A model generated the notes under the pieces. That model did no database searches, was not told the origin of the DNA, and worked only from the letters and a program-made list of their open reading frames with translations. A program made the position numbers and the translations under genes. A DNA stretch of 21,710 nucleotides, from the NCBI GenBank assembly GCA_004022145.1, contig RCNU01000042.1; one strand, given 5' to 3'. Source of the DNA: Paecilomyces variotii. Taxonomy: Eukaryota. Shown here piece by piece: positions 1 to 21,710 of this stretch; positions within the stretch are counted from its first letter, which is position 1, and every line of letters begins with the position of its first letter.

Positions 1-3000
1 AACTATTTATAAATAAAAAAAATTATAAGGAGATTATTATTAATATAGCCCTTTACTTTAAATATAAAAATATTTTAAAACTTAAGGGTAATTAGCTTTA
101 ATACTTTATTAAGTTACTTAATTTACCTCTACTTATTAATAAAAAGAATTTAAGTTTAATAATTAGCTATTATAGATTAAGAATAAGTTAAGAATAAATA
201 TTAATTACTATAAAAATAATTATCTTTATATTATATATATTTAGAGCCGCCTAGGTAAAAAGACTATAGCTTATATATTTTTAAGGTTTTATAAAGACTT
301 AAGCCTCTCTTTTTAAATAGCTAAGGAGATATTTAATTATTTTTAAGCTATATTTTATAATTTAAATTATTAATAAAATATAAAATACTAGTTTACTAAT
401 CTATATATAAAGATATATTAAAAATATAATAACTTTCTTATAGAATTTATAAGATTAATAGGTAAAATAAATATTTACCTTAATAACTACTAAACTAAGA
501 TATATAATAAGATTACTCTCTTTTTTAAAAGTCTTATTATTAGCTAATATTATTAAATTAAGGATTTTAATAATTTTAAAGATACTTATTATTAAGCTAC
601 TTATATCTTTTAAAAGAATAATAAAAATAACTATAAGGCTAATTAAAATAAGAACTTAAATACTAGAACTTTTTTTTAAATCTTATTTAATTAATCTAAT
701 AGCAGTTTCTCTACTCCTAGAATTAATATTAAATCTTTTATTATTAACTATAAGACTCTTATAAAAGAAGAGAAGTATTTTTTTTATAAAATAAAGAGAT
801 ACTTTATTACTAATTACTTATTAAAGAAAGTAATAATAAATATTAAAAACTTAGAAATTAAGATAAAGAAAAACAAATAGAACTTAAAAAAAACTAACTC
901 TTAAGCTAAAACTTTAATTTAGGGATTAATAAGGAATTAGTAGAAATTAATCTTAATTGCCTTTTAAAAGATAATTACCTTATTAAATTTAGCTTAATTT
1001 ATAAAAATAAATATAATATTAAGCTCTTTATCTTATTAGATTTTAGAATAAATAAGCTTTATTTCTTTAATAGTTTATTAATCCTATTAATTACTTAGTT
1101 CTTAAACGCCTCCCTAAAATCTCTATATTAATCTATATTTATTAATAGCTATAATAACTAAACTAGAGAATAAATAGATTATATTTTAATTACTAACTTA
1201 AAGATTAATAAGAGAATTTATTTAAACCTCTTTATACTAATTACTAACTTAAATTATTATAACTTAATCTTTAAATAAAAATAAATAGCTAAAAAGTTTA
1301 TCCTTTTAAATATTTAAAATTAATAGCTAATTTAGCTATATAGTAATCTATAAATTTATTAATTTAATAAGAACTAATCGCTATAAAAAAGATCTAATAA
1401 GGCTATTCTTAAATCTTAAATATTAATAAAATGCTAATAGAAGAGACCTATAAATAAAGAAATAAATCTAGATCTTAAAATAAGAAAATCCCCCTTACTA
1501 CTAGCTACTATAAACTAAATAAATTAATATCTAATTAGTTTTAAAAATATAATATAAATTAAAAGATTAAACTAATTGCTTATCTTCTATAATTATATAA
1601 TTATACCTTTTAAAGATAAATATTAAGATAATATTAAATATTATATATATAGGAGCTAAAAGATTCTAGTAAGCATTATATAAAAAGAATATAGAGGTCT
1701 TTATTATTAGCCTATATAAGATTAATAAGATTATTAAATAAAGGTTCTCTATAATATAAAAAAAGTAAAAACTTTTAAAACTAATTTATAAATATTTTCC
1801 TATAGTCTATAAAAACTTTTTTAATATTTTTTTTAAGTAAGTATTAAATAAATTACTTTTTTACTAGCCTTATAATTATAAAATAAAACTTAAAGAAGAG
1901 ATTTCTTTAAAATATTAACCCCTTTATAAATAATTACTAGAGAAACTATAAATACTTAAAGTATATTTAATTAATAATTTAAAGAAAGACTTTATTATAC
2001 CTAACTAGAAGTCTTTTACTTTATTTATTTTCTTTATAAAAAAGGCTAATAAAAGATTATAATTCTATATTAACTATTATTACCTAAATACTATTATAAA
2101 AAAAGATTAATATCTCTTATTATTAATTAATAAAACTTTAGCTAAAATTAGTTAAGCTAAGATCTTTATAAAACTAAATATTTAATAAGTATTTTATAAG
2201 ATTTAAATAGACCTTAGTTTAAAAGCTTTAATAACCTTTTATATAAGATATAGAACTTATAAATATTATATACTTCTCTTTAAGCTTACTAATAGACTAG
2301 CTATATCTAATAATATATAAATAATCTCTTTTTTAACCTGCTAAATAATTATATAAGTATTTATTTAAATAATATCTTAATTTATTTTAATAATAAGTAA
2401 GAGTATTAACTTTAAATAAAAGAGATATTATCTTATTTGTAAAAGGCTAGTCTATAAGCTAATATTAAGAAATATAAGTTCTATATAAAATAGATAAAAT
2501 ATTTTAGTTTTATTATTAGTATAAAAGGTATTAAAATTAATCTTAAGAAGGTTATTATTATTTAAGATTAAGAGCAGCCTAAAATAATCTATAAGGTCTA
2601 TTTATTTTTAAGTTTTTATAACTTCTATAGGAGGTTTATTAAAGACTATAATTATATTATAAGACTAATAATAAACTTAACTAAGGAGAATTACTTATTT
2701 AATTTTAATTAGAAGTATTATAAAGCTTTTAAAATATTAAAAAAGTATTTTTAATTAGTATTAATTCTATATAATTATAATCTTAATAAGAATATATATA
2801 TTAAGATAAATACTTTAAATAGTATTATAGCCGCTATACTTATTTAATAGATAGATAAATAAAATCCTTAGTATTTAATTACTTATTACTTAAAGATAAT
2901 AATACTAGTTAAATATAATTATTTAATTTATAATAAGGAGCTCCTAGCAATTATATAAGCTCTTAAGGAATAATATATAAAGCTTATAAGTTTATAAATA

Positions 3001-5062
3001 GATAAGCTATTTAATATCTTAATAAATTACTATACTCTTAAATATTTTATAACTATTAAAATATTAAATTTAAGATAAGCTTAATAAGTAGAATTTCTAT
3101 CTTATTATTATTTCTTAATTTAATATTACTCTAAAAAGCTAAATATTTTAGCTAATATTCTATTATAATAAAAAAGAAATATTTCCTAATAAAAAGAATA
3201 GATAAACTAATACTAGACTTAGCGCTTACTAGAGCTTAAAATCTTAGATAAATCAATCTAAAAGGAGTTAATAGAATAGAGAACTCTCTTAGCTTTAATA
3301 TTAACTAGAAAATTTACCTTAATAGATAGGATTTTTAGGGAAAATTATAAGAATATTAAACTAGTATTATTTTATAAAGACGCAGGCTAAAAAGGCTTAA
3401 TATATTAATTAATAAAAGAACTCTTATTATATAATAAATAATTAATTATCTTTAATTAAGAGAATTTATAAATATATCTTTTAAATAAAATCTATTATTA
3501 AATCTCTACTATTTATTCTAAATACTAAAAAATATAATAATTAATAAAGTCCCGCTATTACTAGCCCTAAATAATTAATTTTATTAATTAATATATTAAT
3601 AATTATTTAACCTGCTGCTAAACTAAGAATCTTTAAAACTTTTTATTAAAGTTACTTTAATTATTATCTATCTTTAAATAACTATAGTAATATCTCTTAA
3701 TAGATTTCTAATCTTTTTTAAAAGATAAATATAAGTATAATATAGTATTTATTATAGTTAACTATTTTAATAAATACTTTATTTTAATTCTTTATTATAA
3801 TATAGTAATAGTAAGAATTATAGCTAAAATTTTTTTAAATATATATATTATTATAAGGGCGCTCTTAATATAATAGTTTTTAATTAATAAACTTTTAAGA
3901 TAAATTCTATTTATTACTAGAAATAAAATTAAAGCTTTCTTTAACTATATACTTCTAGAGACTATAACTCTATATTAGCTATTATTAAGATAATTAATTA
4001 AACTACTTCTTAATAATTAATTTTATAGCAGTAATATTAACCTAAAAATTAATAAGAATATTCTTATTTACAGTTAAATATAGATATAAGCCTTATATCT
4101 TATTTAACTGGCGAATAGTACTGCAGTTAATCCTAATATTTAAAAAGGCTAATTAAGCTAAAGCTTAGCAATAGATACGCAGACTCTAATAGATTTAAAA
4201 GATAATAGAATTCTCTATTAAAAAGGCTTAAAAATAGTAAAAGAAATAAGTAAATAAATATTATTAAGAGATTAACTTTAATATTAGTAATAAGGTTCTT
4301 ATTAAACTTATAAATTAAATATTTAATTAATTCTTATAAAAGCTTAATAATTAAATAAAAAATCTCTTTAAAATTCTTAAAAAAATAAGAAATACTTAGA
4401 AGCTAAAGCTTCTTAATATTATAAAGATTTACTCTATATTTTCTCTAAATTACCTTTAATAGGCGCTAAATAATCTTATTCTATATTAAGTCTATAAAAA
4501 GCCTCTACTAATTTAAATCTAGGGTAAATTAAAATAAGAAGTTAATAAGATTCTAGCTATTTAGACTAAATATAAGTATTTATAATATTAAGCTACTTAA
4601 AAGAAGTATAATAAAGATAATATAGTATTCTGCTAAAAATTTTAAGAATTTACTATTAAAGGTTTAAGAGTTTTATAATAGATTCTCTAATAAACTTAAG
4701 CCGTTAGCTAATTTAAACTACTAGATTAATTATATTAATAAAAAGATTAATTTAGAGAAATAATAAGATAATAATTATTCTATTAATTTAAGGATAAATT
4801 AGCTTAAATAAAGAGATAATATTATAGCGCTATCTTAGCGCTAACTTAATAAAGAGATAAAGTAAGAAATCTGCTAATAAAACCCCTAACTACTTATATA
4901 ATTTAGAAGTAATTAAGAGATAAAGAATTCTATAAATAAAAGAATTAGAATTCTTTTTCTAAATTCTTTTCCTTTTCTCTCTTTAGCTTAAAGTTCTCTA
5001 TTATATTACTTTACTAGATTAAAAGTATTAATAAATTTAATTTAGTCTGCTTAAGCGTAATA
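1..5062 (+). mobile_element. RIP-inactivated Ty3/Gypsy chromovirus LTR retrotransposon (element 1; 5' end outside window)
   Basis: Motifs in Gypsy order after reverting C>T/G>A: gag CX2CX4HX4C knuckle 776-817; slippery AAAAAAC plus stop 888-897; protease LLD(S)(G) 1033-1047; RT Y-L-D-D-I-L-I-Y (tat tta aat aat atc tta att tat) 2362-2385; RNase H TDASD ~2806-2820 and YDKELLAI ~2929-2952; integrase PWQHLSMDF ~3681-3708; chromodomain WEVDKILA..YQATWKGY ~4535-4610; purine tract then LTR. All frames full of TAA/TAG stops. Confidence 0.93.
4820..5062 (+). repeat. 3' LTR of element 1 (~243 bp)
   Basis: Follows the purine tract aaataaagagataa (~4806-4819). Starts tattatagc (RIP form of TGTTAC..) and ends gcgtaata (RIP form of ..GTAACA), i.e. 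TG...CA inverted ends. Partner LTR not in window, so boundaries are inferred. Confidence 0.7.
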
Positions 5063-5985
5063 ATATAATAAGTCTTAGGCTATATTTTAATAATTCTTTA
5101 TATTAATTTTTAATATTACTTCTTAATATCTTTCTTCTTCTTAATATATTATTAGTTAAGCGACTTAAATTATAAAGAGTTAAAGTATAGAAATTTTTTA
5201 ATAAAGGTAATTAGTTAAACTAATTAAATAAAATATAAAATAAGAGATTAAAATATAAGCGAGTAATAATCTATATATAATAAGGTTAAAGATTAAGTTT
5301 TATAGTAGTTAGAATAAATTATTAATTTATTTAACTTTTATTTTTTAAGAGGTTTATTTATTTATTTATTTAATTTATTAAGTTATTAGAATAACTTAAT
5401 CTTAATAACTATATTATATAACTAGCTAATTTAACTATTATATATATCTAGTTATTTTATTATTTTTTCTCTAAGATTAAGTAAGTTTACTATAACTTTA
5501 GTTTATAATATATATTTAATAATATAATAATATTATTATTAATAAATAAGTTTATCTTTAGCTTATTTACTAAATATACTTTTATTATATTTTATAAGAT
5601 TACCTTTTTCCTTTAATTAATATAGAGAAGTTTAAAATAATATTAAACTAAATATAAGTAATAGTAAAATCTTTAATATTTAATTAATATATTAAAATAC
5701 TTATATATTCTAAAATATATACTCTATTAAGTATAGAATAAATTTATTTATAGTATTTATAATTAATAAAGTATATTTTAATTTAATATAGTTTAAGAAA
5801 TTATATTTAAATATTAGTCTTTATAAGATTTACTATATTATTTTAATTTATTAATAAATATTATAAAATAAAATGTTTTTAATACTATTAATAATAATAC
5901 TAAAGTTTATATTATATATTAAGTAAAGTAAATTACCTTAGTTAGCATAATTTAAAATATAGAACTATATTTTATAATGGCTATA
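5063..5985. other. AT-rich RIP-degraded sequence of unidentified origin
   Basis: TpA-rich and almost free of CpA/TpG like the flanking transposons; no motif I could decode. Confidence 0.5.
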
Positions 5986-6024
5986 ATAAAAAAAAAGAAA
6001 AAAAGGAAAAAAGGAAAAAAGAAA
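5986..6024. repeat. Polypurine (A/G) low-complexity tract at the RIP/GC-island boundary; T/C-rich 3' flank of the deaminase-like gene
   Basis: aaaaaaaaagaaaaaaaggaaaaaaggaaaaaagaaa ends 6 nt from the stop codon at 6031-6033. Confidence 0.8.
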
Positions 6025-6030
6025 CTGCCA

Positions 6031-7159
6031 CTAGGGTGGCGCCCCGGCTTGGCCGCTAGTACTTAAAAAGTTCTGAAGGTTCCCTCCGTATAGACGGATT
6101 AGCACCTGGCAGTTGGGGCAAGGGTCTCTAACCCTCGTCCAAGCAGAACCAGACAGATTATCTTCGTACTGTGCAGCTGTGGTAAAGTCTCGCTGCAAGG
6201 CTAAGCCATGGCAGGTTTCTCTAGTAGGATTGTGGCCCCTGCAACGGTCAGTCTATATCACTCAGGATGGAAGGGAATAGTCGCACTTGAGAAGTCTTAA
6301 AAAGGGGTATGTCTCCGCACAAGTACCAAATCTTTGCCTGTTGTATGCTTGGGGTCCCCTACGAGCAGGGGCATGCACGAAGTCGTATCCAGTCAATTTG
6401 AACGGTTCGTCGTTCAGAGGACGGAAGCGGGCCCGCCTCATAACATACAGCCAGGTGCCTGTCGAAGGTTTTGGCGCATCATACCCTGCCAAGTTTGAGC
6501 CCAGAAAAAACTCGTCGGCCTGGCCGCACCTCTGACGCCATGTACATTGGTACATGTACGGCGTTCGATCTCCAACTGCTGCGCACCATTTTCCGTATAC
6601 GGCCGTCAGAGGCAAGTAGAAATTCCGTTTGCTGGCTCCAGTCGGAGCGCCGCCAATCGTTGACAGAAATAGGCCGAGAAGGTCGAAGATGCCCCAGTAG
6701 TTTAGATTACTGTGAGCGTGGCCTCCGACTTTAAACTTCGAAACGATTACAGGCTGCCGTGATGGGGGCCACGCCGGATTCAACGTTCGGTGTATGTGCT
6801 GGTTTGGCGTCAGAGTAGCTGACGCGTAGTCTGGTCCGTTCGGCGATCTATAAATAGTTAAATACTATAATAACCAAGGAGTTCTGTAGCACGTATTGGA
6901 AATGCAGGACTGGGCCTATACCTTAATCGTAGGATCTCACGCCGAATCCGCTGCAACTCAGTTTGGACATTGGCCGGTACAGCATACGTTGCAGGGTTGC
7001 TGCAAACGTCCTGTAGGAAGGATTCGACCTGGGTATCTCTTTTAATTATTCTGCAGAATATGTCGATCCGAAGTCAGAACGTACCTGTCCAGCGTTGTAG
7101 CTGTAGGCAGCCCGGAGATCTAGCGTCCCGTTAAATGCACGGAGAATGTTCTCTGCCAT
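6031..7159 (-). CDS. Intact 4-exon gene, 316 aa, predicted zinc-dependent nucleotide/nucleic-acid deaminase-fold protein (CAE...PCxxC)
   Basis: Exons 7159-7085, 7028-6922, 6847-6287, 6238-6031 (951 nt, 316 aa + TAG). Introns: 7084-7029 (GTACGT..CAG, 56 nt), 6921-6848 (GTATAG..TTAAC..TAG, 74 nt), 6286-6239 (GTGCGA..CTGAC..CAG, 48 nt). All phases join with no stop: MAENILRAFNGTLDLRAAYSYNAGQ|VESFLQDVC...LRLR|SPNGPDY...FGTCAETYPFLRLLK|GHNPTRETCHGLAL...RDPCPNCQVLIRLYGGNLQNFLSTSGQAGAPP*. CAE at 6321-6313, PCPNC at 6123-6109. The listed ORF 6262-6783 is most of exon 3 read from a TTG and running into intron 3. Gene model well supported; function is motif-based. Confidence 0.88.
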
Positions 7160-7668
7160 ATCTATTGGGATATGCGGAGTTTTATCACTGATACTGCTTG
7201 ATATGGAAACAGCTTCGCAAGTCTTTTGTGCGACGTATTATTGTGAGTAGCAAGAGTATCGTGTGGATTACGCGAAGCACGTAGGAGTCAACAACTATTG
7301 GGGGGTGGGAAAAGAAAACTCCCACTTACAAAACTTTTCAAAAATGAAGTTTCCGACAGAGACTACTTCAAAGGAATACGCCTTCTGCAATCAGGCAAGT
7401 TCATATCGTATACAGAACAAGATGTTATGTTGAGCCAGTCAAGTAACTCTCCGATTATTCCGTTGATACTGAGCTAATGAGGGTAACTCAGCAATCTCCA
7501 ATTCCAAATCAAACAAGACGAAAGGCCACGAAGGACAAAGGAACTGAAGTACAACATTCTTCGAGCTAATCCTCTCCAATTTCATCAGATTAATGAGAGC
7601 TTGCGGTATTTTCAGCAGCGTTGATCCCAGTGTTCCCACCACCGTGGTTTCCGGAGGCAGTATTTGTA

Positions 7669-8065
7669 CTAGCACGCCTTCAACTTCAGTCCACAAGTAT
7701 CCGACTTGTACATTCTCTGCAAGATCTTGTTGAAATCCCGGCTTAACGTGATCTCGAAGACCTCACCAACTAGCTGACCCCATATGTAGAACTTGTCGCC
7801 GGACTTGAATAGGACGCTGCCACAGCCGATATGGGGCTTACTGCACATAATTGGCTGCGGATCAATTAGGCCGTGCTCTCTGGCCATCTCCTGTCCAGGG
7901 CTGTTTGCGTTACCCCAGACAAATCCAACATTGAGTTCTTTGGGATCGGTTGTCCAGTCTTCTGGTGGTTCAAACTAGTCAGAATCATACATCAGTGGGC
8001 CGTTTCATTCTTGGAATAGGGAAACAAGAAAAACGAGCACCAACGTTTCGAGGTACAGAAGCCAT
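7669..8065 (-). CDS. Intact 2-exon gene, 108 aa small protein of unknown function; possible SUKH/US22-like fold
   Basis: Exon 1 8065-8045 (MASVPRN), intron 8044-7975 (GTTGGT..CTGAT..TAG, 70 nt), exon 2 7974-7669 (FEPPEDWTTDPKELNVGFVWGNANSPGQEMAREHGLIDPQPIMCSKPHIGCGSVLFKSGDKFYIWGQLVGEVFEITLSRDFNKILQRMYKSDTCGLKLKAC*). Contains listed ORF 7669-7887. No signal peptide visible. Confidence 0.75.
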
Positions 8066-8490
8066 GACGGATTAAATGGACTTGCAGTTTAGCTTATGCA
8101 GCGGCTTATTTATTTGTTGATAGTCTCGAAGAACACAGCCAGAGAGTACGATTCTGTCTGGCGATGGAGGATAAGGCGATGAGGGCAGAGAGAGACAGGT
8201 GCCTGTGTGAGTGAGTGAGTGGAAAGACTTCATTGACATATTTGGCTGAGGGAGGTGATATATACCAGACCGCGCTAGACCAAATAGAGCTCCAAGCTTA
8301 AAGCTTCACTTCACTAAGTTATCGTTCTATCTGATTATATAATCCCAGATTTGTTTAGGTTGCCACCGACAGACACAGATAACCCTCTATATCTACCTAG
8401 GTACCTACTCTGCTATATCTTCAAGGAAAAGGAAAGCTCTGTAGTGTATTCAAATATACAGTTCATAGTCAACCGGACTTTTTTTATAAG
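8066..8490. promoter_or_regulatory. Probable divergent promoter / 5' UTR region between the 108-aa gene and the Zn2Cys6 gene
   Basis: Lies between head-to-head genes. Contains TATA-like words (8258-8264, 8336-8342) and a tract at ~8165-8225 that is CT-rich on the minus strand, as often found before fungal transcription starts. Positional inference only. Confidence 0.45.
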
Positions 8491-8564
8491 GTAAGTCTCC
8501 AAATTCTGACTCTTCGACCGATGTTTCTACCTCAGGCGACAATACCTAACCTACGCCAACTCAG
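8491..8564 (+). other. Spliceosomal intron in the 5' UTR of the Zn2Cys6 gene
   Basis: AG|GTAAGT donor at 8491, CTAAC branch site 8546-8550, CAG acceptor 8562-8564; 74 nt, consensus fungal signals. Confidence 0.65.
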
Positions 8565-8621
8565 CTGTTGGATTCGAGGACAGCCGTCGCCCAAGACAAC
8601 CATCTTCTTTTTATTCCAACC

Positions 8622-8807
8622 ATACCCGGTGTAGGTGATCGCAGCAAAGGTTGTAAAACCCGTCGAAATAAAAGAGCCAAATGCGGTATGGTTGGAGTCT
8701 AGTTACTTTGTTCACTCATGACCCCTAATAAATGCAAAATAGACAAGAAAATGCCATTCTGCGACCGCTGTCAGCGAGGTAATTTCCACTGTGTCGGCAA
8801 CAACTAG
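8622..8807 (+). pseudogene. Decayed Zn(II)2Cys6 (Gal4-type) transcription factor gene, N-terminal DNA-binding domain; remainder fades into RIP-mutated DNA (~8810-9900)
   Basis: Exon 8622-8685, intron 8686-8742 (GTATGG..CTAAT..TAG), exon 8743-8807 give [I]PGVGDRSKGCKT[R]RNKRAKC|DKKMPFCDRCQRGNFHCVGNN*, matching C-X2-C-X6-C-X6-C-X2-C-X6-C. Lesions: presumed start is ATA, second Cys position is CGT (8661-8663), TAG at 8805-8807. Confidence 0.85.
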
Positions 8808-9946
8808 CTACTCGCAAGATGGTTTACAATAGAATGCATTCTATTCTTCAAACATAATACCCGTAAGGATTTGTAAAATATTGGCGCGGCACAGAAGGCG
8901 CAGAAGAAAATAGCCGGAGGTTATCTTAGCATAGCTCAGACACTTGGCAAAGATTAGTTATTTAGGAGCTAACCTGAATTAGTATACATAATATAGTAAG
9001 AGCTACCTAATTCTTTGCGAAGTATTCCCTTTTCTTAGAATTACTATTAGCTTTTATTATAAGATTAAACCTTTTATATATACTTACTCTAATAAATTTT
9101 AGTATTAATAATTTAAAGATAATTATAAAGTAACTTATAAGTTAATATTATAGCCCTTAAGTACTTAAAAAGATAAATACTAAGCTAGTTATTACTAATT
9201 ATTTAAAATTCTTATTTAATAATAATAAGAGCTTAGAATTAATAACTTATTTTACTTATTAAATATATTAATTATTAATATAAATATTAATAATATATAA
9301 AATAAAGTTAAAATAGTTTTTTTAAGATTAAAGAAAGTCTTTATAAATAAGGTAAAGAAAAAAAATACTTTAATAATAAAATAGTAAGAAAATTATAATA
9401 TTATTAACTTAAATAATTATACTTTAATTAATTATAAAAGTAGTAATATTAAGTTATTATAATATTATATAAAGCTAGTTAATATTATAGTATTATAATA
9501 ACTTTCTTATTTTAAAGGTATAATAAAGTAAGCTTAATTAAATAAGTAAATAAGTTAAATAAAAATAAAGCTTAAAGATATAGTAAAGTAAGCTTTATAA
9601 TAATATTTAATATATACTTTAACTTTAATAACTTACTTAATAATTTTAATATAAAAGTTTAAAATTAATATTATTATAATATAATTTCTTAAAGCTAATA
9701 AAAATACTTAATTAAGAAATTATTTAAGAGTTTAATTAAGTTAAGTTATTTAATTACTACTTTATTAATTAAGCTAATTATTAATATAAGTAACTATTAT
9801 TAAAGCTTTAAGGTATTTATAATAAAATTCTTCTATATCTTTAATTCTACTAATTTATTAAATTTATAAATTTTTTACTTATTAAAGAAAAAGTAATAAA
9901 AAATAAAGAAAAGCTTTTATATATATAAATATTAAAGAGCTTAATA

Positions 9947-10007
9947 AGGGCTTATATCTTAGCTTAGCTAAGGCTAAGCTTAACTTACCCTAAAAGCTTA
10001 GCCTACC
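9947..10007 (+). repeat. RIP-mutated left terminal inverted repeat of the Mutator-like element
   Basis: 40/60 identical to 17304-17363; 19 of the 20 differences are C>T or G>A in the RIP direction. Confidence 0.88.
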
Positions 10008-10143
10008 TTAAAGCTTATCTTTAGCTAAGTTAAGCTTAATCTATCTTATATACAGATTAAGTATAAGCTAATTATATAATTAATATAAAATTAGCTTATT
10101 TAAGAATTAATAATAGTATTTATATAATAAAACTCTTTAAAAT

Positions 10144-10148
<5 letters not shown>

Positions 10149-10177
<29 letters not shown>
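10149..10177. repeat. (AT)n microsatellite, ~14 units
   Basis: Perfect atatat... run. Confidence 0.9.
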
Positions 10178-10180
<3 letters not shown>

Positions 10181-11692
10181 GCTAATATAAAGCTAAGAAA
10201 TATTATTATTTTATCTCTAAATACTTAAAAATAGCTAAGAATTAAATAACTATAATTAATAGCTAAATTAATAGCATTTTTAATTAATAGCTATATAATA
10301 TTCTTATTTAAATATATTTAATATAACTTTTACTAAGGCTAAGTAAATGCTAAATATATATTTAATATTAATTATATTTAAACTAAATGCTAACTCTTTA
10401 TAAAGTAAACTTATATAAAACTATAATCTTTATAAAGTATACTTAAACTAGTTTAAGGATATAATAAATAATTAAAGTAGTATTAATTCTTATATATAAA
10501 GTAAAGATAAAAAATTTAAGATATATCTTAAATTCTCTCTTTATATAGAACTTAATTAAATATATTTTTTTTATAAGTTCTAGTAAGATATATGCTAAAT
10601 ATATTTAAAAGATTATTTCTCTTATAAATATTATTATTAGCTATAATAATATCTTTAAGATTATAGTTAATAATATTTAAAATAAATTATTTATTTTTAA
10701 ATATCTAATAACTTATTTTAATAGTATCTTATATTTTATTTATTAAAAGAATTCTTTACTTTATAACTATTTTAATATAAATATTTATTAAATATTTTAA
10801 CAATTTATATTAAAGGTATATTTATACTTTATCTTAAGTAAATATTTAAGATATTATAAGCATATACTAAATATAGCTTAGATCTAGTTTAAGCTTTATA
10901 CTTAAGGTAATTATAAGACTTTATCTCTTCTATTTTTTTAAAAGGATAAAAAAGATAAAATTTAAAATAAGATATATTATTAAGTATTTAAATGCAGCAG
11001 TATTAAACATTGTAAATATATGCTAAAGCATATGCTTAGATAATACTATAAATATAACTATATTAAATTAAGTATTTTTAAAATGCTTTATAAAAAAGTA
11101 AGTTATATATTTAATATTACTTTTATTAATAAACTTTTTAAAAAAGAAACTAAAAATTAATATAATAAATTTCTTATTTTTAAAATTAATAATTAATAAG
11201 GTATTATTTTTATTTAAAAAATAAAATATAAGTATACTTAAATTAAACTTTAATAATCTTTAAATAATATAAAATAAGTTTAACTCTCTATTTAATCTTA
11301 GTATATGCTAAATATATTCTTAGCTACTAGTTACCTTTATTAGTTACTTATTAGTAAATAATTTTAAATTATAGTATATTATATAAGCTATCTCTATATA
11401 TAGCTTAAATTTATATACTTTATTTATATATTTTAGTAGCTTATAAGATATATAGTACTAATATTCTTATTTAATTTATTTATACTTATATTAATTATAT
11501 TATTTTAAGGTATATAACTTGCAGTAGGTATTTACTCTATATATACTAAGTATATATTAATTATAAGTCTAGGATTTAATTATTCTTAAAGTATATTTAA
11601 AGTCTTATATAAAAAATATAATACTTTAATTAATATTTTTATTCCTTATAATTAAGATTATTTTCTTTTTATTCTTCTTATTTATTAAGAAG

Positions 11693-11980
11693 TATTATAG
11701 TATTAGCCTAGGAAAATCCGCTAGCTAATACTTATATAAGTTAGAAGAGTAAGACTTAACTCTTCTAGATTATATAAGAAATTATATAACCTTATAAAGG
11801 ATATCTTTAGCGTATAGCTTAATCTAGATTTAAGCTTTTTAAGCTATATTTTATTTACTAAGCCTATTTATAATAGCCTATTTTAGTCTAAATTAATTAA
11901 ATAGAGATTTTATAGCTAGTCTTAGTATTAATTACTTATTCTATTTATTTTAACTTACTCTCTAAGCCTGTACCTTAATA
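11693..11980 (+). repeat. 5' LTR of element 2
   Basis: Ungapped direct repeat of 17949-18236; ends tattata...ttaata are RIP forms of TG...CA. Confidence 0.96.
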
Positions 11981-14900
11981 CTATGTAGCTCTTATCTAGA
12001 AGTTAATACTATTAATAATATTTACCCTAATTCTCTTATTTTTGCTAATTATTTTAGAAGAGTTTATTAAGTATATTACTACTAGTTATAGGCTAAAATA
12101 ATATAATTATTATTACTTAGTATATAAATATATTGCTAAGGCTAAGTTATTAATAAATAAAGCTAGCTAATATATTAAATAAATTAAGATAAAATTTTAA
12201 AAACTTTAATAAGAGTTTATAGCTATATAATAAAGACTTAAATAAGAAAATATTAATCTTAAGGCTATTTAATAATATTAAAAGGTATAGCTTAATAAAA
12301 AAGAATAGTAATATATTTAAGCTATTTTTAAAAAGGATTAAGCTTATTATATAGCTATTTCTACTATAAATATATTTATATTTATATTTAAATCTAAGCC
12401 TAATATTAAGAGATCTGCAGTTACTTTAATAAGAGTATTTAAAATATTTATTATTATATCTTTTTCCGCCCCTAAATTTTTAAAAAGACTTCTTAACTTA
12501 AATAAGTTTAAAGATAACTAAAAGAACTTTTAGTACTTTATAATCTAGATTTAAAAAAATAATAATTAATTAAAACTAATTTCTAATCTTTTAAAGCTAT
12601 ATAGCCTATATAACTAATTACTTAAAAGATATATCTTATACTTAAATATTACTATATATTAGAAATAAAATCTATATTCTTAATAATTACTAAAAGATTT
12701 TAAATATCTTAAAATATATATTTAATAATCCTAATTATATAAATAATATATATAATAAATTATTTAACCTTTATTAGATTAATAAGAAATTTAAAATCTT
12801 TTTTATTAAGTTTTAGCGCTTAGCGCTAAAAGGAGAAATACTTAAAAAAATATTATTTACCTTATTTAAGTAAGCTATTAGCTAAGAACTCTAGGATATA
12901 TTATTATATAGCTAGCCTCTAAGTTATAAATATTATTAATTTATTAAGTTCTTATAAGACTTTAAGAACTATTACTACTAATATATTATAAATTAGCCTT
13001 TTATTATAAAGACTTATACTACTATTTTAAGACTTACTTAATATATTTAATCTCCTTTATTTATTTTAAATCCTATTTTAGCTATAAAATATAATAATTA
13101 GCCCTAGAGAAGCTTTATATAAAAAAATAAACTAGCCTTAGTATAGCTATATAATTTAATAAACCTAAGTACTTCTAGACGCTTAAGTAAGAAAAAATAT
13201 AGCTTATTATATTATAAAACTAGCGCTTACTTTTAATATAGCTTCCTAGAATATTATATTAAAGATTATCTGCATTTAAATAACTGCTAGAAGATTTAAG
13301 CTATAGCTATATATAAACCTTACCCTTAGATTTCTTAGATAATCTAGTTCTTAGACTTATATAATCTATTCCTTAGCTAATTTTTAATAAAAGAAATAAG
13401 CCTAAAATAAGTTATAGCTAGGCTTAAAAACTATATATTATTTAAATCTCTATTACTGCTATTTATAGAATTAATTTTAAAGAATATTTATAATAATTAA
13501 AATTAATAATATTATTTATAATATTAGAAAAGAAGAAGAAGAAGATTTACTTATTAATTTATACTCTACTTAATATTAGAGTTAAAAGATAAAGATTTAT
13601 AGATTAAGAATAGGCTAAAGATTAGAAATTAAAGCTTATTCTCCTAAAAAGCCTAATTATTTTATATATATTTAATAAAAGAGAATTAGAGAATAGGAAG
13701 ATTATATATTATATTTAAATAAATATAAGAATTAAGAATTACTTTAAAAAGAATGCTAAGTTTTATATTATTTAACTAGTATATTACCTTATTATTTTAA
13801 GACTCTTCTAGTTAAAGTACTATAACTTATACTTATAATTTATTATCTATAATATTACTTTTAATAATAATTATTATTAAAAAAATTATAATATATTTTG
13901 AAAGCTAATTAAAATATCTACCCTATATAATATTTTTCTACAAACTTTATCTTAATATTTATTTCTAAGACTTAAAGGATTAAAAAAGAGAAATATAGCT
14001 TTTATTTCTCTAACTGCTTATTCTATCTATATTTAAAAAAATATTTAAATATTTATAATTATCTTAAAGAACTTAGATATTACTTTAAGAATTAAATAAG
14101 TTTAAAAAGAAGACTTTACTCGCCTATTACTTAAAAAATTTAAAAATTATATTAATATCTTTTCTTCTAAAGAGATTAAGTATCTATTATTATATTATTT
14201 TTATAATTATAATATTAAGCTATTAGAGAGAAAGTTACTCCCCTTTAAACTCCTATATATTATATCTTAAGATAAATTAAAGATCTTAAAAAAATAGATT
14301 AAAAAAAACTTAAAAAAGGGATTTATCTGCCTAAGCTTATTACCTATTATATTCTTAATTCTATTTATTAAGAAGCTTAGTAAAAGAATATAAATCTATA
14401 TAGATTATTAAGCCCTAAATATAATAATTATTAAAGACTAATATTCTCTACCTTTAATTAAGAAGACTTTAAATAATTTAAAAGGAATAAAATATTCTAT
14501 AAAAATTAATATTATTTCTATATTTAATAATCTTTATATTAAAAAAAAATAAAAATACTTAATTACTTTCTATACTTAACTTAGCCTATTTAAATTATTA
14601 ATAATACTATTTAGCTTAATAGAAGTATTAATAATATTCTAATAGTTTATTAATAATATTCTATAAGATTACCTTAATATCTTTTATACTATATATCTTA
14701 ATAATATCTTAATATATAATATAACCTATTCTAAATATATTTAATATATCTATATTATTTTATAGAAGCTATATAAAATAGGCTTATATATAAAGATTTA
14801 AAAGTATAAGTTTATTATCTTTAAGATTAAGTTTTTAAGTATTATTATTAGCTAAGACTATATTAAGATAAACTTAAATAAGATAAAAATAATTATTAAA

Positions 14901-15786
14901 TAGAAGACCTTAATTTATATAATTTATATAATTAATATATAAATCTTTATTAAGTTTAGTAACTTTTATTATTAGTTTATTTATAACTTTTCTAAGATAA
15001 TTATATTGCTTATAAACTTAATCTAGAAGAGAGTTTTCTTTAATTAAATACCTACTTATTAATCTAGTTTTAAAGCTTTAAAAAAAATATTTATTTAAGC
15101 CTTAATTTTAAAGCTATTTAATTAAACTTATAAAGTTATAATTAAAACTAACTTATTTAATTATATATTAGCTAAAGTTATATCTTAATATAATAATAAA
15201 AAAATCTTATATCTTATTATATTTTTTTTAAAAAAGCTTTTTATTATAAAATATAATTATAAGATTTATAATAAAGAACTATTAATAATTATTTATTGCT
15301 TTAAGAAGTAGCGCCCTAAGCTTAAAGATATACTATTATTAATTAAAGTTATTACAGACTATTATAATTTAAAATATTTTATATTAATTAAGCTATTAAA
15401 CTAATAATAAGCTTATTAGTCTAAGTTCTTATCTTAATTTAACTTCTAAATTATATATTATCTTAAAAAATAAAGAATAAAATCTAATACCTTAATTAAG
15501 AGATTAGAAGATCTTTTTAAAAAGAGAAATAAACAGCTATAATATTAGAGCTAAATAATCTTAAAGAAAGAGAACCTTAACCTATAAATTTAGAGATTCT
15601 TAAAACTAGAAGTTATTATTAGGAGTTAAATAGTAAGGTATATTTACTTTACTAACCTAATAGCTTAAAAGATTAGAAATCTTATTAAATCTATAAGAAT
15701 ACTTACTTAATTTATTTTAAAAAGTTAAATTATTTAATTTAGAGAATCTATTTAGTTTATTTTATTACTTAATTAATTTATTAAGA

Positions 15787-15870
15787 TTATTTAATCTATT
15801 AAAAGAATAATTTAGCCTATTAAAGAAGCTATTTAGCTTATTAAAGAAGTAGCCTCGCCTATTAAGTAAA
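15787..15870 (+). repeat. Four degenerate 21-bp tandem repeats in the RNase H-integrase linker of element 2
   Basis: ttatttaatctattaaaagaa / taatttagcctattaaagaag / ctatttagcttattaaagaag / tagcctcgcctattaagtaaa. Confidence 0.75.
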
Positions 15871-17302
15871 ATTAGCTAAGTTCTCCTGCTATATTTAATA
15901 AACTAGAATATTTATTTAATATTAAAGATTTATTAAATATAACTTATCTATTTAATAATTTAATATAGTTTATTCTATAAGCCTTAGACTATAAAGCTAA
16001 TTATTATCTTAAGATTATATTAGCTAATTATTAATAAAGAGGAAGATATTTATATTATAAAGACTACTTATATATTTTTAATTATAATAAGCTAAGAGCT
16101 TACTTATTATAAAAATACTATAATAAGTATATATTTAAATACTTTAAAAAATATAAGCTTTATAACTTAATCTTATAAGAGTACTATTAGTTAAATATAT
16201 ACTAATATATAAATTATTAGACTTAGAATTACTATATTTATTATTATATTATATTCTTAAATAAAGGCTATACTAGCTTCTTATCTCTAAATATTCTTAG
16301 TAAAATATCTTAATAGATTTTATTACTAGACTTATACTTTATTAAAGTTATAATATTATATTAATTACTATAGACTAACTTATAAAGATAAGATACTTTA
16401 TTTCTTACTAAGCTATTTATAATATTAAAGAAGTAGTATAATTATATATCTGCTATATATAAAAGCTTTATAAATTATTAAAGATTATAGTATTTAACTA
16501 AGGCTTTTAATTTATTACTACTTTCTAGAAATACTTAATTTAATATTTAAATATTATAAACTTATTATTTATTACTTATTACTCTAAGATTAATAATTAG
16601 ACTAAGAGAATAAATGCTATTTTAAAATAATATTTATACGCCTATATTAGCTATTTATAAGATAATTAGATTAACTAGTTATTTTTAGCTAAATTTATAT
16701 TAAACTTCTACTATTTTAAGATTATTAAAGTATTATTTTTTTTTACTAACTATAGGTTTTATTTATATATAGGATTTAAGCCTATTTAGCCTATAAACTA
16801 GCCTGCTATTAGAGATATTAAAGCCTTTATTAAAAAAATATAAGATATTATAAATTATATCTATACTTAAATTTATATTGCTTAAGCCTATTATAAAGAG
16901 TAAATTAACTATTATTAAACCTTAGCTTATTATTATTATATAGAATAATCTATTTAATTAAATACTTAGAATATTTATATTTAATATCTTTAAAAGAAAT
17001 TTAATTAAAAGAATCTTAATTTATTCTATATTATTAAGATTATTAACCTATATACTTACTAGCTAGACTTACTTACCTTAATATATATTTATTTTATATT
17101 TAATATTAGCCTGCTCTATTCTATTACTAAAGACTTTATATTTAAATAGAGATAATTTTCGCTATTACTTATTAAAGTTAATAGCCTTAAGAAATAAGTT
17201 ATTAAAGATATTTTAAACTTCTAATAGAAATATTAAGATTATAAAAGGCTTTAATTATAATATATTATTAAGTAATTAGGTTATAATAATTTAATTAAGA
17301 AG

Positions 17303-17822
17303 CGGGCCTACACCTCGGCCCAGCCGGGGGCGAGCTCAGCCCACCCTAGAAGCTCAGCCCACCCGAGTATTTTTACCATTTTTTAAGTGGGCCGAGCTTT
17401 TAAACTAAAAACTTCAAGAATTTATTAAAAGTCGAAACCTAAAGATATTTCACTCGAAATTAAATATTTATATAGGTTATAACCTATATCTTATATATAT
17501 AAAAAAAGAAAAATTAAATATCTAAAAATCGATTTTTAAGAATTAAAAAACCAAGAAAGATTTGTAATTTTCGAATTTCTATGTGTAATTTACTAACTCT
17601 TGCCCTAGCGTACCCAATTAAAATCCTAAAATCCTAATTTTAATATATAATGTAGACTAAAATATAAATTATTTTATAATATTTTTTATATATTTCTACT
17701 ATGCCTAAATAGGCTAGGAAAAATCAAAGTTTCTTGGGGTGCGCCGAGATCCCAAATACTTGGGTGGTATGAGCTTTTAGGGTGGGCTGAGCTCGTCCCC
17801 GGCTGGGCTGAGCTACATCCCG
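17303..17822. mobile_element. 520-bp non-autonomous Mutator-like element (MITE) inserted in the chromodomain of element 2
   Basis: Perfect 9-bp TSD ATTAAGAAG (17294-17302, 17823-17831); ~70-bp imperfect GC-rich TIRs (17303-17372 and 17754-17822), CGGG...CCCG ends; no ORF. Removing it rejoins the chromodomain reading ..KWSGYDDPTEE|PAYYL.. Confidence 0.95.
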
Positions 17823-17948
17823 ATTAAGAAGCTTATATATTATCTATAGTATATTTAAAAGATTATTACTAACTTTTATTACCGCTATTTAAATAAGTTA
17901 AAACTAAAAGATAGTTTTAATAAAGCTTAATCTTAAGAAAGAGAATAT

Positions 17949-18236
17949 TATTATAATATTAGCCTAAGAAGATTTACTAGCTAATATTTATATAAGTTAA
18001 AAGAGTAAGACTTAACTCTTTTAAATTATATAAAGAATTATATAATCTTATAAAGAATATCTTTAGTATATAGCTTAATCTAGATTTAAGCTTTTTAAAC
18101 TATATTTTATTTACTAAGTTTACTTATAATAGCCTATTTTAATTTAAATTAGCTAAATAGAGATTCTATAGCTAGTCCTAATATTAACTACTTATTTTAT
18201 TTATTTTAACTTACTCTTTAAGCCTGCACCTTAATA
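17949..18236 (+). repeat. 3' LTR of element 2
   Basis: Direct repeat of 11693-11980, preceded by a purine tract and followed by TSD AGAAG. Confidence 0.96.
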
Positions 18237-19754
18237 AGAAGATTATATATATTTTCCTCTATTACTAACTAAGTTAAGTTAAGATTTTATTTAAGAACTT
18301 ATAGATTTAATTAACTAAAGGAATATTCTTACTATAACTATATATATATTATATATACTTTAAATCTATACCTTATATATACTAACTAAATACTTATAAA
18401 TAAATTTTTAATATTTCTAGAAGTATATGTATTTAAATAAAAATATTAAGGTTAAGCTTTAAATTTAATTAGAGCTTCTTTAAATATTAAGAATAAAATT
18501 ACTTATTTAATTTAAAAATAAGAACTTATATAATATTTATTTAGTTTAAATATTACTAGTTAGAATTTATTCTTACTATATATTTTATATATATTAATAT
18601 TATATAGAGGTTATATAAGAGTATAAGTTTAACTAATATAAAAAAAATAATAAATAATAAATTTACGCAGTTAATATTAATAAAATTAGAGAATATATTA
18701 TTATTTATTATATAAATACTTAAGTAAAAGTATTTATAAAAGCTAAATACTTTAAAATAAATTTAGCTTATAAAATAGTACTTAGAAATTTAAATATCTT
18801 TTTAATCTTAAGCTAGAATTTTAAAGCTAAATATATATTTAACTTATTTATTATAAAATAGCAGTTAGAACTAGTAAGTATTATAGGGAATTATATAACT
18901 TTATTATATAGTAAGGAAATAAATATTTTAAGATAATTTATAATAAGAAAATAATAATAATAATAATTATAGTTTTACTTCTTATATTTATTCTTTTAAG
19001 TTATTTTTCTAGATTTAGAAGAAATAAGTCTTACTATAATTAAATCTATTTCTTTTAACTAGTTATAAGCTTAGGTTTATAATAACTTAGGAGAAATTAA
19101 GTAATATAAAACTCTTTACTTAAAGCTATAAGATTTAAAATAATAATAATAAGCTACTCTTATATAAGAGGACTTATAATAAGATTACTCTAGTATTTTA
19201 AGATTAAGTATTAAATCTAATAAGAATTAAAACCTATTAAAGGTTAGAAAATTAACTTACTATAAAAATATTATTAATAAAAAATATTAATAATTAAAAG
19301 AGAAAACTTACTTTTATCTTTTTAAAAGAGAATTATAAGAAGTAATTTTCTTATATAAGGAAATAGCTTATTAATAAGAACTGTTAAAAAGCTATTAAAT
19401 TAAATAAAAATCTATATAAAGCTATATATAATAAAACTAATATAACTATATAATACTAGATTACTAAATACTTATCTAAAGATAATTAAAATAGATTTAT
19501 TAACTTCTTTAATATAAAAGTATTATAAAAGGCCCTATAAATAAAATATTAAAAAACCCTTTTTACTTAAAGATATTAGTTTATTTAATTATATATATAT
19601 TTTTAAATAACTCTTAAATAAATAATCTTAAATATTTAGAGGTAATTATAATAAATAAGAAAGAGAATTATAATATTTAATAATATAATATTTTTTTTAG
19701 CTAAATTAAAAGTTAAAATATAATAATTACTCTTAATATTATTTAAAGAATATA

Positions 19755-21710
19755 TATTATAAAGAAGACTCGCGGGCTTACTGCCTTTAGGGCTTATCGC
19801 TTTATTTTACTAGTTATATTATATATATTAGTAACCCTACTTCTCGCGGGACTTAATAGAATTTAACCTTCTTATACTTTTATAATGCTAATAATTTAGT
19901 AGTATATTTAGTCTATTTAAGGCTTAACTAGAACTAGAACTAGAGAACTATTTCTAGTTTATTTAAGCCTTAAATATTATTTTACTTAAGATACTATCTA
20001 AGGGCCTAGCCTATAGTATTAGATTTAGGCTATATTATATCTTTTTACTTCAGATATTTACTTAAATTTTTACTTAAAGATAAGTATTTAAGGGCGAAAA
20101 GTAAAGACTTATATAAACTTAAAAGTAGCAGTTCTAATAGCTTAAGAGAAAACTCAGATAGCTTTAATAAAAAAAAAGATAGTTCTAATAAATATTTTAC
20201 AGATAAGGGGCTTAAATAGCTCTCTTCTAGAAAAAAAGAACTTTATTAAAGGGAAGAGAGCTATTTAATAGAGGAGAGAGGGTTTTTAATAGAGAAGAAA
20301 AGGCGCTTAATAGAAGAAAATAATACTTAACTATCTATATATAATAATAACGCCCTTAAATATATATACCTTAATAGATTTATAAGCTTAACTATTCTTT
20401 TATATTTAAGAATATTAATATATTCCTTTTACTAGAATAAGAAAGTAAAGTTACTTAATAAATCTCTTACTATTTTATAGAAAGTACTTATTATTTAATT
20501 AAGAGTTAATTAGTTAATTATTTATTCTATAAGGTAGAAGAAAATACTTATTCTTAATAGTTTTTCTCTTAAGGATATTATATTTATTATAAAGAGGGCT
20601 AATATTAAAAGTAATCTTAAAGTAAAGTAAAAGGTAATAATAAAATTAATAAGTAATAGAATATTCTAGGGAAACTAATCTTTATAACTTAATATTCTAC
20701 TATTATTCTGCCTAAAGGCAATAAATTAAAATACTATTAAAATAAGAGAGAGTAAGAGAGAGAATAAATAAATTACTGCTATTACTATATTTTAATCTAA
20801 TATAGTATACTATTAAACTATAGTATATTATTATAACTATTAAAATTCTATAAACTAGAATTAAATAAAGTAAGCTAGCTCTTAAAATAATCTAATAACT
20901 TAAACTTAAATAATATATATTAAATAAAATAACTATATTTAATAAGCTAGATATTATAAACTATTTATAAAAAATCCTTAATAAATATAATATTTAAGAA
21001 GATTATAGTTTTATAAATATATTAAAGAATTAATAAATAAAGATATTACTTAAAGAAGGCTAAGAAAGATATTTACTATACTATAGTAAGGTTTATTCTT
21101 TTAATCTTAAAAATAAAGAAGTTATTAATTAAATTTTTAATAAACTCTATAAATAAGGATAAATATCTTAAATAAAAGGATATATACTTAATAAATATTT
21201 TATATTTATTATTTAGAAGATAATTAAGAAGAATAGTATTTAAATATATAAAGAATATATTATAGTTAATATTAGACTATTAAACTATAAAATAGAACTA
21301 GATATTTATTTAATTTTAATTTAAGATAATATTCTTATAATAATTAAAGAATATATATATATTTCTATCTTTAATATTATCTTGTTTTTTACTAATAGTA
21401 AGTCTTTCCCTTATATTAATTAAAGCTAGCTGTTATAATATATTATAGCTAAAAAATCTTTAATATTATAGTAATAGAATTCTATAATATACTTACTTAT
21501 ATATAACGGCTAATAAATTTCTATTTAAGAAAGCTCTATAAATTTATATAAATCTATATTAATAATCTTATTATCGCCTCTTAAATACTGAAATAATATA
21601 AAGAATATTTATATTTTATTTTTTCTATCTTATAAGATTTAAATATTACTCTAAATTTAAAAAAGTTATTTATTAAATTTCTGTCTATAACTCTATTAAG
21701 CAGATATATT
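19755..21710 (+). mobile_element. RIP-inactivated Ty3/Gypsy-type retrotransposon of a different lineage (element 3); runs off the window; left boundary uncertain
   Basis: De-RIP translation of ~21088-21580: KVYPLDPKDKEVIDQTFDKLHEQGRMSW..YPVFVVWK..KGRVVVDIRPLN..DVYPIPTQDDIL..FDAISFFYQWRV..THRGQEIFNVAVMGFCNAPAYVQRLMD..YIDD (21555-21566). RT call is firm. Candidate short LTR 19755-19893 followed by PBS-like tttagtag is tentative. Confidence 0.85.

Follow-up and report, generated by a model that had tools for sequence, protein, structure and literature searches.

A diverged fungal protein family with a predicted deaminase fold and a small conserved neighbour gene in Paecilomyces variotii

Introduction

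The stretch of DNA described here, referred to as the window, comprises 21,710 nucleotides of contig RCNU01000042.1 of Paecilomyces variotii (assembly GCA_004022145.1). On its minus strand, at 7159-6031, lies a gene for which the DNA and its three-frame translation give four exons and a product of 316 residues. The evidence laid out below suggests that this protein represents an undescribed and probably active clade of deaminases with features of the YwqJ-type toxins, and that the small protein encoded directly upstream is its likely inhibitor, the two genes forming one module. A probability of about 0.6 is assigned to this reading. The deaminase superfamily itself has been described before; what is new is the clade, together with its architecture and the fact that, in a eukaryote, it is paired with a partner gene. 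Neither the fungal family nor the gene pair is described in the full texts surveyed, the supplementary lists of families in Iyer et al. (2011) lying outside the scope of that survey.

Gene structure and splicing

The two halves of the putative active site are separated in the DNA by an intron. The motif Cys237-Ala238-Glu239 (CAE, 6321-6313) is encoded by exon 3, and the motif Pro287-Cys288-Pro-Asn290-Cys291 (PCPNC, 6123-6109) is encoded by exon 4. Intron 3 (6239-6286, 48 nucleotides, GTGCGA..CTGAC..CAG) interrupts the codon of Lys248, nine residues past Glu239, and is in frame yet contains stop codons. A prokaryote-style list of open reading frames (ORFs) holds only a fragment with a TTG start at 6262-6783, which terminates after CAETYPF and a few more residues (it ends with CAETYPFLRLLKCDYSLPS and a stop), and a second fragment at 6031-6198, which carries PCPNC. 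The two motifs are found on separate ORF fragments.

The complete gene, all of it on the minus strand, starts with the ATG at 7159-7157. Exon 1 (7085-7159) encodes Met1 to Gln25 and its translation is equal to residues 1-25 of the public model P0216; homologues align without gaps over its junction. It is followed by intron 1 (7029-7084, 56 nucleotides, GTACGT...CAG), which is seen in the sequence, keeps the frame and is used in the public models P0001 and P0216. Exon 2 (6922-7028) runs from Val26 into the codon of Arg61, of which it supplies the first two bases, as given by translation and by P0216. After intron 2 (6848-6921, 74 nucleotides, GTATAG...TAG), exon 3 (6287-6847) encodes the N-terminal domain together with core helix 1, strands 1 and 2, an insert and helix 2, to which CAE belongs. 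Exon 4 (6031-6238) consists of 68 codons and the stop codon at 6033-6031, and supplies strand 3, a further insert, helix 3 with PCPNC and the C-terminal end ...GAPP. There are 236 residues ahead of Cys237, in agreement with the figure of about 235 given in the original prediction, which had been made from the letters of the window and an ORF list.

Splicing was assessed by aligning contigs of public RNA-type runs (X1, X2, X3 and X5) to positions 5900-8300; such contigs can indicate the presence of a splice, not its absence. Intron 3 is removed in two contigs, one from X1 and one from X5, runs that belong to two different studies (joint 6237 to 6286, 48 nucleotides skipped, GT..AG on the minus strand). 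Intron 2 is removed in a contig of X1 (joint 6847 to 6922, 74 nucleotides skipped, GT..AG on the minus strand). The deaminase-like gene is thus transcribed, and introns 2 and 3 are spliced. Removal of intron 1 was not seen in the sole contig that crosses 7084-7029 (X1, piece 6922-7974). As this contig keeps the intron, the junction rests on the gap-free alignment of the homologues and on the public models. The contigs of X2 and X3, which belong to one study of food-fermentation metatranscriptomes, keep all introns, including intron 3 and the intron of the partner gene. They resemble DNA or unspliced RNA and are therefore uninformative on splicing.

One X1 contig of 2038 nucleotides covers both genes (6025-8220), with three introns out and intron 1 (7084-7029) kept. 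Overlapping or read-through transcripts, together with intron retention, could account for it.

The spliced product is identical, letter for letter, to P0216, a 316-residue protein deposited in GenBank as RWQ91169.1 ('hypothetical protein C8Q69DRAFT_410279 [Paecilomyces variotii]') and also present in UniProt. The four-exon model of the original prediction, with its three introns, the 48-nucleotide intron among them, and its length of 316 residues, is therefore confirmed by translation, by the joints in X1 and X5 and by the identity to P0216. Of its three junctions two are seen in RNA, intron 2 in X1 and intron 3 in X1 and X5, and at the third the one contig that bears on it keeps intron 1. 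The description of the gene as hidden holds with respect to a bacterial-style ORF list and does not hold for GenBank, which contains the exact model. In other P. variotii strains, members of the same 90% cluster are represented by automatic models of 152, 237, 296 and 310 residues, and gene callers evidently struggle at this locus. The 310-residue GenBank model P0001 was considered as giving the true end of the protein and was rejected, since GAPP or GAPA forms the end of homologues and of six metagenome loci, just as in the 316-residue model. In the closer homologues this conserved G-A-P-P or G-A-P-A stands right at the stop (6034-6045 in the window; loci L001-L004, L006 and L009) and is absent from P0001; more distant members of the family have longer and differing C-terminal tails.

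Eleven related metagenome loci were retrieved, eight of which contain the CAE motif. In all eight the position and the phase of intron 3 are identical to those in the window, reading through the intron leads to a stop after 23-30 codons, and PCxxC is found 198-223 nucleotides downstream. Because position and phase are kept in eight of eight loci and the motif residues are conserved throughout the family, the gene model with intron 3 is, as judged from these comparisons, beyond chance.

The protein family

A search with exon 3 as the query returns 86 proteins at E≤0.01 among 137 candidates. Those matches of this search that have a named source are all from ascomycetes (Aspergillus, Coccidioides, Fusarium, Cordyceps, Ophiocordyceps, Ustulina and Peltigera). 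With a profile built from eight full-length members, the number of representatives is 477 at E≤1e-3, falling to 290 at 1e-10 and to 114 at 1e-30. When bacterial and archaeal genomes were scanned with one narrow family pattern, 15 stretches matched, none of which is a relative. Of 211 collected family proteins, 58 contain C[AGS]E..P as well as PCxxC, with a spacing of 40-94 residues, and most of the remaining ones end at the position of intron 3.

The putative catalytic residues are strongly conserved. In the non-gap rows of the 148-row family alignment (A2), Gly235 is kept in 95% of 144 sequences, Cys237 in 97% of 144 and Glu239 in 96% of 143. Of the residues encoded beyond intron 3, Cys288 is kept in 95% of 77, Asn290 in 90% of 78 and Cys291 in 88% of 78. 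Other near-invariant positions are Arg81, Asp116-Leu-Leu-Gly119, Trp148-Cys149, Cys162-Thr-Trp164, Trp193, Arg201 and Tyr272. Two of the findings that would have spoken against the original prediction, an unspliced intron 3 and homologues devoid of CAE and PCxxC, are thus contradicted by the joints in X1 and X5 and by these frequencies.

Several homologues are much longer than the P. variotii protein, among them P0105 (885 residues), P0201 (633 residues) and P0194 (540 residues), and carry extra regions that match nothing in Pfam; their architectures might hint at function. In an Atlas feature search with P0001, the third-ranked cluster (score 0.95, 388 residues, 127 members) is labelled 'commonest Chordata', a surprising taxon for something that resembles a fungal family; it could reflect either contamination or a real animal relative.

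Predicted fold

The AlphaFold2 model, computed with the 148-row alignment, has a predicted local distance difference test (pLDDT) score of 95.3 and a predicted template modelling (pTM) score of 0.93. From residue 134 onwards it consists of a helix (134-152), two strands (159-167 and 173-178), a helical insert, a helix (240-247), a strand (255-263), a second insert and a helix (289-297), after which the chain ends. The CAE motif is positioned directly before helix 240-247 and PCPNC opens helix 289-297, with strand 255-263 between them. The order of the elements is that of the deaminase core, namely helix 1, strand 1, strand 2, helix 2, strand 3 and helix 3, without helix 4 and strand 5. The inserts occupy residues ~179-236 and 264-286, and the chain stops 25 residues past Cys291.

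The model was compared with 48,161 chains by VIA-align, a structure search independent of Foldseek, which listed 50 rows. Rows 1-18 and row 20, that is 19 of the top 20, belong to the deaminase superfamily, as do about 30 of the 50 matches listed, and nearly all of these deaminase matches span model residues ~130-310. The best match is the cytidine deaminase 3b8f (Z 6.2, root-mean-square deviation (rmsd) 3.0, 109 residues aligned, model residues 132-310), followed by the blasticidin-S deaminase 3oj6 (Z 6.1, rmsd 3.5, 106 aligned) and the CDA-type protein 2g84 (Z 5.9); rows less than 1 Z apart are to be regarded as tied, and a Z under 8 can reflect a common arrangement. Matches with Z of 3.4-4.5 include TadA, ADAT2, deoxycytidine monophosphate (dCMP) deaminases, DddB and a type VI secretion (T6S) cytidine deaminase toxin. 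The Z values are modest, and the weight of the fold match derives from the uniformity of the listing, which is dominated by one superfamily, and from the canonical places of the motifs.

The model thus combines the features by which the superfamily is recognised, [CH]xE at helix 2, PCxxC at helix 3 and a superposable three-layer α/β/α fold, and it lends modest support to membership. The deaminase reading of the original prediction agrees with the placement of the motifs at the helix starts and with the composition of the top structural rows, at the modest Z given above.

Comparison with known deaminases

The clade to which the fungal family bears the closest resemblance is that of the YwqJ-like toxins (PF14431). 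In the sections of Iyer et al. (2011) concerned with it, this clade is described as having a Gx[CH]xE motif, an insert between strand 3 and CxxC, a truncation after helix 3 or strand 4, and a conserved histidine in the insert that separates strand 2 from helix 2. Apart from the histidine, these features have counterparts here: Gly235-x-Cys237-x-Glu239 in helix 2, an insert ahead of helix 2 (~179-236), the insert at 264-286, and the early end of the chain past helix 3. A further likeness is the small protein encoded next door as a pair. Bacillus subtilis YwqJ has recently been reported (PMC13648612) to be a cytidine deaminase acting on single-stranded DNA, which is neutralised by its immunity protein YwqK and whose first zinc ligand is modelled as His537.

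The differences are considerable as well. The first ligand of the fungal family is a cysteine instead of the modelled His537. No match to PF14431 is found in any of the 148 members at E≤1, whereas the PF14431 model, used as a positive control, does match in the B. subtilis genome. The fungal protein lacks LXG, PT-TG or any other delivery domain and has in their place a fungus-specific N-terminal domain of ~130 residues. Its gene is eukaryotic and intron-bearing, and its product is devoid of a secretion signal. In the Atlas feature search a YwqJ-related cluster appears at rank 18 with a score of 0.77, which is a lead only. By analogy, the fungal family is probably a new clade that resembles the YwqJ-type toxin deaminases without being a member of PF14431. 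The earlier suggestion of an uncharacterised clade is in line with the Pfam scans, none of which returned a significant family, and with the lack of matches to PF14431 and PF14441 at E≤1 among the 148 members.

The cytidine deaminases (CDD/CDA) and blasticidin-S deaminase (BSD) provide the best structural matches and share with the fungal protein the all-cysteine zinc motif CxE + PCxxC. They are 12-13% identical to it. These enzymes have ~130-140 residues and a complete five-stranded core, whereas in the fungal protein the first ligand is preceded by 236 residues, two large inserts are present, and helix 4 and strand 5 are missing.

Another fungal group, the OTT_1508-like deaminases (PF14441), is likewise intracellular and carries an α+β N-terminal domain before the deaminase domain; a mutagenic role or one in non-self discrimination is proposed for it in the relevant part of Iyer et al. 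(2011). The family described here, in contrast, does not match PF14441. The OTT_1508-like clade has GxxK before CxxC, whereas the corresponding stretch here reads ...TRVRDPCPNC and holds no GxxK. In addition, the OTT_1508-like deaminases fall into the helix-4 division; the P. variotii protein, in contrast, ends right past helix 3. Judged by these sequence features, an assignment to the OTT_1508-like clade does not fit.

The partner gene

A second gene (7669-8065, minus strand), which the original prediction had missed, lies directly upstream and on the same strand of the window as the deaminase-like gene. It consists of two exons and encodes a protein of 108 residues, identical to the GenBank hypothetical protein P0221. 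Exon 1 (8065-8045) encodes MASVPRN, and exon 2 (7974-7669) includes the stop codon. The intron between them (8044-7975, 70 nucleotides, GT..AG) is removed in X1 and X5 (joint 7974 to 8045). The partner family comprises 479 proteins at E≤0.01 among 980 candidates.

The two genes are found together elsewhere. In P. variotii strains they carry consecutive locus tags. In tblastn searches, the metagenome loci L006, L007 and L009 each show a homologue of the partner (38-39% identity, E 2e-12 to 3e-22), which is situated upstream of the deaminase-like gene. No other locus among the 11 has an upstream flank longer than 500 nucleotides, so that every locus with such a flank contains the partner homologue. 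In each of them it is located on the opposite strand, so that the two genes are divergent. Because the linkage is retained despite the change in orientation, a functional pair can be argued. A weaker hint of co-occurrence is that members of both families list the same longest-contig values (10518, 2241 and 7554971).

Locus L009 (3-221 and 525-1156) is unusual. Between its partner homologue and residue 125, where the alignment of the deaminase-like gene begins, there are only ~300 nucleotides, which is too short a distance for the usual N-terminal domain. The partner copy of this locus has substitutions at otherwise conserved positions, and L009 may be a decayed copy.

The partner model (7-row alignment, pLDDT 89.2) is a small α+β protein. 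In the structure search, the SMI1/KNR4 protein 3d5p reaches Z 5.7 (rmsd 3.5, 81 aligned), as does a cystatin (Z 5.7); lower values are obtained with two immunity proteins, RhsPI (Z 5.0) and Tdi1 (Z 4.6), with Ugi-2 (Z 4.7) and with Syd (Z 3.4). Foldseek against the PDB returns nothing at E≤0.001 for this model, and neither Pfam (119 homologues) nor a PDB sequence-profile search gives a meaningful match. The Atlas leads, US22 (0.88) and SMI1/KNR4 (0.86), are all below the bar of 0.9; its structure rows comprise GAD-like, Tdi1_C and SUKH.

Parts of Iyer et al. (2011) list SUKH proteins as the bacterial immunity partners of deaminase toxins. With the SUKH proteins (SMI1/KNR4, US22 and Syd) and the Tdi1-type immunity proteins the P. 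variotii partner shares its character as a small α+β protein beside a deaminase-like gene and a weak likeness in fold (3d5p, RhsPI, Tdi1 and Syd). It differs from SUKH in having no SUKH Pfam match.

Co-folding of the enzyme with the partner gives a score of 0.58 (0.55, 0.58 and 0.61 in the individual runs), the best of three controls scoring 0.00. When the mark was calibrated, 51 of 78 solved complexes attained it, as did 2 of 108 mismatched pairs; those attaining it at scores of 0.60 or less were only 5 of the 78 solved complexes and all four passing mismatches (of 180). Seven of 44 blind neighbour pairs also passed in this calibration. At least 90% of the contacts agree between the runs, and the pLDDT of the partner is at least 83. 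Co-folding lends weak support to the binding of the partner by the enzyme.

Proposed mechanism

By combining these observations, it is possible to outline how the two proteins might work. The 316-residue protein would be cytosolic. Its residues ~130-316 would form a cut-down deaminase fold, on to which a family-specific N-terminal domain (residues ~1-130) is built. One zinc ion is predicted to be coordinated by Cys237, Cys288 and Cys291 together, and Glu239 would serve as a proton shuttle that activates the water bound to it, so that an amino-substituted base could be deaminated hydrolytically. The substrate pocket would be shaped by the two inserts and by the N-terminal domain, with the conserved Arg81 and Arg201. 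As the set of features is nearest to that of the YwqJ-like toxin deaminases, the likeliest substrate would be cytosine in single-stranded nucleic acid. We infer this substrate, and with it a role in conflict or defence, by analogy. The 108-residue partner would bind and restrain the enzyme, most likely as an immunity-like inhibitor.

A more far-reaching proposal would make the pair a eukaryotic counterpart of bacterial toxin-immunity systems, in which an intracellular nucleic-acid deaminase is silenced by a co-encoded SUKH-like inhibitor, widespread in filamentous ascomycetes as a conflict system. Such a system might act in non-self recognition after hyphal fusion or in defence against mycoviruses or transposons, or might itself be a selfish toxin-antidote element. 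This joint proposal is put forward tentatively and we regard it as doubtful at present. In a bolder variant the partner could block uracil repair and not the enzyme, which would make the pair a natural 'deaminase plus UGI'; the weak likeness to Ugi-2 (Z 4.7) is its starting point.

Evidence against and alternative explanations

A number of observations weigh against the interpretation of the pair as a deaminase and its inhibitor. No sequence method links the family to deaminases. Pfam gives nothing significant with single exons, with 7 full-length members, with 10 long members or with the 148 alignment rows. Membership by a curated sequence model (PF00383 or its relatives) is found for none of the 148 members, the single PF00383 match having a non-significant E of 0.14. 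Isolated Pfam rows such as DUF4644 (E 0.013-0.032) were dismissed as being at chance level. A PDB sequence profile search returned no deaminase; its UCH-L1 rows (8 rows, E 0.045-0.052, 53 columns) were rejected as chance.

In a profile comparison by hhalign, the C-terminal half of the family aligns with 14 phage dCMP deaminases at a probability of 26.5% (P 1.3e-4) and with the 9 shorter ones at 70.3% (P 4e-5), an N-terminal control giving P 0.74. Only 18 columns around the PCxxC helix are confident in these alignments, and CAE is not paired with HAE.

In structure, the best Z of 6.2 lies within the range common for unrelated arrangements. Foldseek against the PDB gives no row at E≤0.001 for the deaminase-like model, and re-examination of its 141 chains leaves a single row, CDADC1, at Z 3.0. 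The top structural matches are free-nucleoside and antibiotic deaminases, not nucleic-acid enzymes. With regard to the YwqJ-like clade, the insert that separates strand 2 from helix 2 is present (~179-236) and contains no histidine among the positions conserved at 85% or more.

The pairing is subject to similar reservations. Linkage outside P. variotii rests on three short metagenome contigs, and P. variotii is the only named species common to the two family lists. None of the 119 partner homologues matches the SUKH Pfam families at E≤1. The fold matches of the partner are all below Z 6, with cystatin tied for the top.

As an alternative, the enzyme may be a small-molecule deaminase in metabolism or detoxification, acting on a free nucleoside, a base or a nucleoside-type antibiotic in the manner of cytidine or blasticidin-S deaminase, with the neighbour as an accessory subunit or merely linked. 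The three best structural matches (3b8f, 3oj6 and 2g84) and the all-cysteine ligand set are those of such enzymes, and Pfam recognises no signal peptide, delivery domain or nucleic-acid-binding domain in the protein. The rows at the top are tied, however, and nucleic-acid deaminases follow within ~2 Z units. In addition, the relevant passages of Iyer et al. (2011) describe the GxCxE motif, both inserts and a chain cut short past helix 3 for toxin clades, and not for CDA/BSD. A conserved small partner with a weak fold likeness to immunity proteins and inhibitors also better fits a toxic activity that has to be controlled. A small-molecule enzyme is therefore considered unlikely, and it is the main competitor of a deaminase restrained by its partner.

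It is also conceivable that a chance α/β arrangement and two coincidental cysteine motifs imitate a deaminase, the true fold and function being unrelated. The empty Foldseek result, the Z of 6.2 in the common range and the lack of a significant sequence link are all compatible with such a coincidence. It would, however, have to produce 19 of the 20 top rows and about 30 of the 50 listed from one superfamily among 48,161 chains, to place the motifs exactly at the N-termini of the two ligand helices of that superfamily, and to yield hhalign P values between 4e-5 and 1.3e-4 with the C-terminal half when the N-terminal control gives 0.74. We find this quite improbable.

Least probable is a catalytically dead scaffold with a structural zinc site, a binding or regulatory subunit like ADAT3/Tad3, which the missing helix 4 and strand 5, the binding potential of the large inserts and extra N-terminal domain, and the weakly supported co-folding with a protein partner would suit: inactive deaminase paralogues usually lose the catalytic glutamate, whereas Glu239 is kept in 96% of 143 sequences along with all three cysteines. 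Truncated cores occur, moreover, in toxin clades that are active, according to the corresponding part of Iyer et al. (2011).

Genomic setting

The two genes occupy an island of normal base composition (6000-9000), with a guanine plus cytosine (GC) content of 0.47 overall and with only these two genes inside. By block, the GC content is 0.10-0.20 around this ~3-kb island (~6000-9000) and 0.37-0.56 within it; the flanks as a whole (1-5990 and 9050-21710) have a GC content of 0.16-0.17. The dinucleotide ratios differ as well, TpA/ApT being 1.37 in the flanks and 1.01 in the island, and (CpA+TpG)/(ApC+GpT) being 0.09-0.15 in the flanks and 1.08 in the island. The bias of the flanks is of the type expected from repeat-induced point mutation (RIP), and the two-gene island is unaffected by it. 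A two-part genome of P. variotii is mentioned in a portion of PMC6300479. The family enzyme was considered as the enzyme of RIP and this idea was set aside, as no Neurospora protein occurs among the source-named matches of the exon 3 search.

The sole other GC bump in the window is a GC-rich inverted repeat (17314-17372 and 17754-17812) with arms of 59 nucleotides that are 90% complementary and spaced by 381 nucleotides. It may be the relic of an element with terminal inverted repeats. A direct repeat of 288 nucleotides with 89% identity (11693-11980 and 17949-18236) lies within the AT-rich block and is consistent with degraded repeated elements.

The contigs of X2 and X3 differ from the window at positions 7309 and 7565, where both have G>A; these are probably strain variants. 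The same contigs break off at 6897 and resume at 6894, inside intron 2, with unmatched sequence on both sides, and the 29 unmatched letters are identical in X2 and X3. The break suggests that the strain from which X2 and X3 derive carries an insertion or a rearrangement there, with an overlap of 4 bases.

Implications

Nucleic-acid deaminases are the raw material of base editors and have also been used as weapons in genetic conflicts time and again. To our knowledge, every deaminase clade used so far came from sequence models; in contrast to these, the family described here is invisible to Pfam. Its hundreds of diverged representatives, with their conserved catalytic residues, minimal core, new N-terminal domain and dedicated partner, would enlarge the known deaminase repertoire. 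Prokaryote-style gene calls cut most metagenomic members of the family at the conserved intron and so conceal the PCxxC half of the active site.

If the predicted enzyme acts on DNA or RNA, its cut-down core would be a new deaminase scaffold, and it is of possible interest for base editing. The gene pairing recalls the toxin-immunity modules of bacteria. Filamentous fungi could thereby gain a candidate intracellular mutator or toxin system, a possibility which, including a link to RIP, has been raised for other fungal deaminases in part of Iyer et al. (2011).

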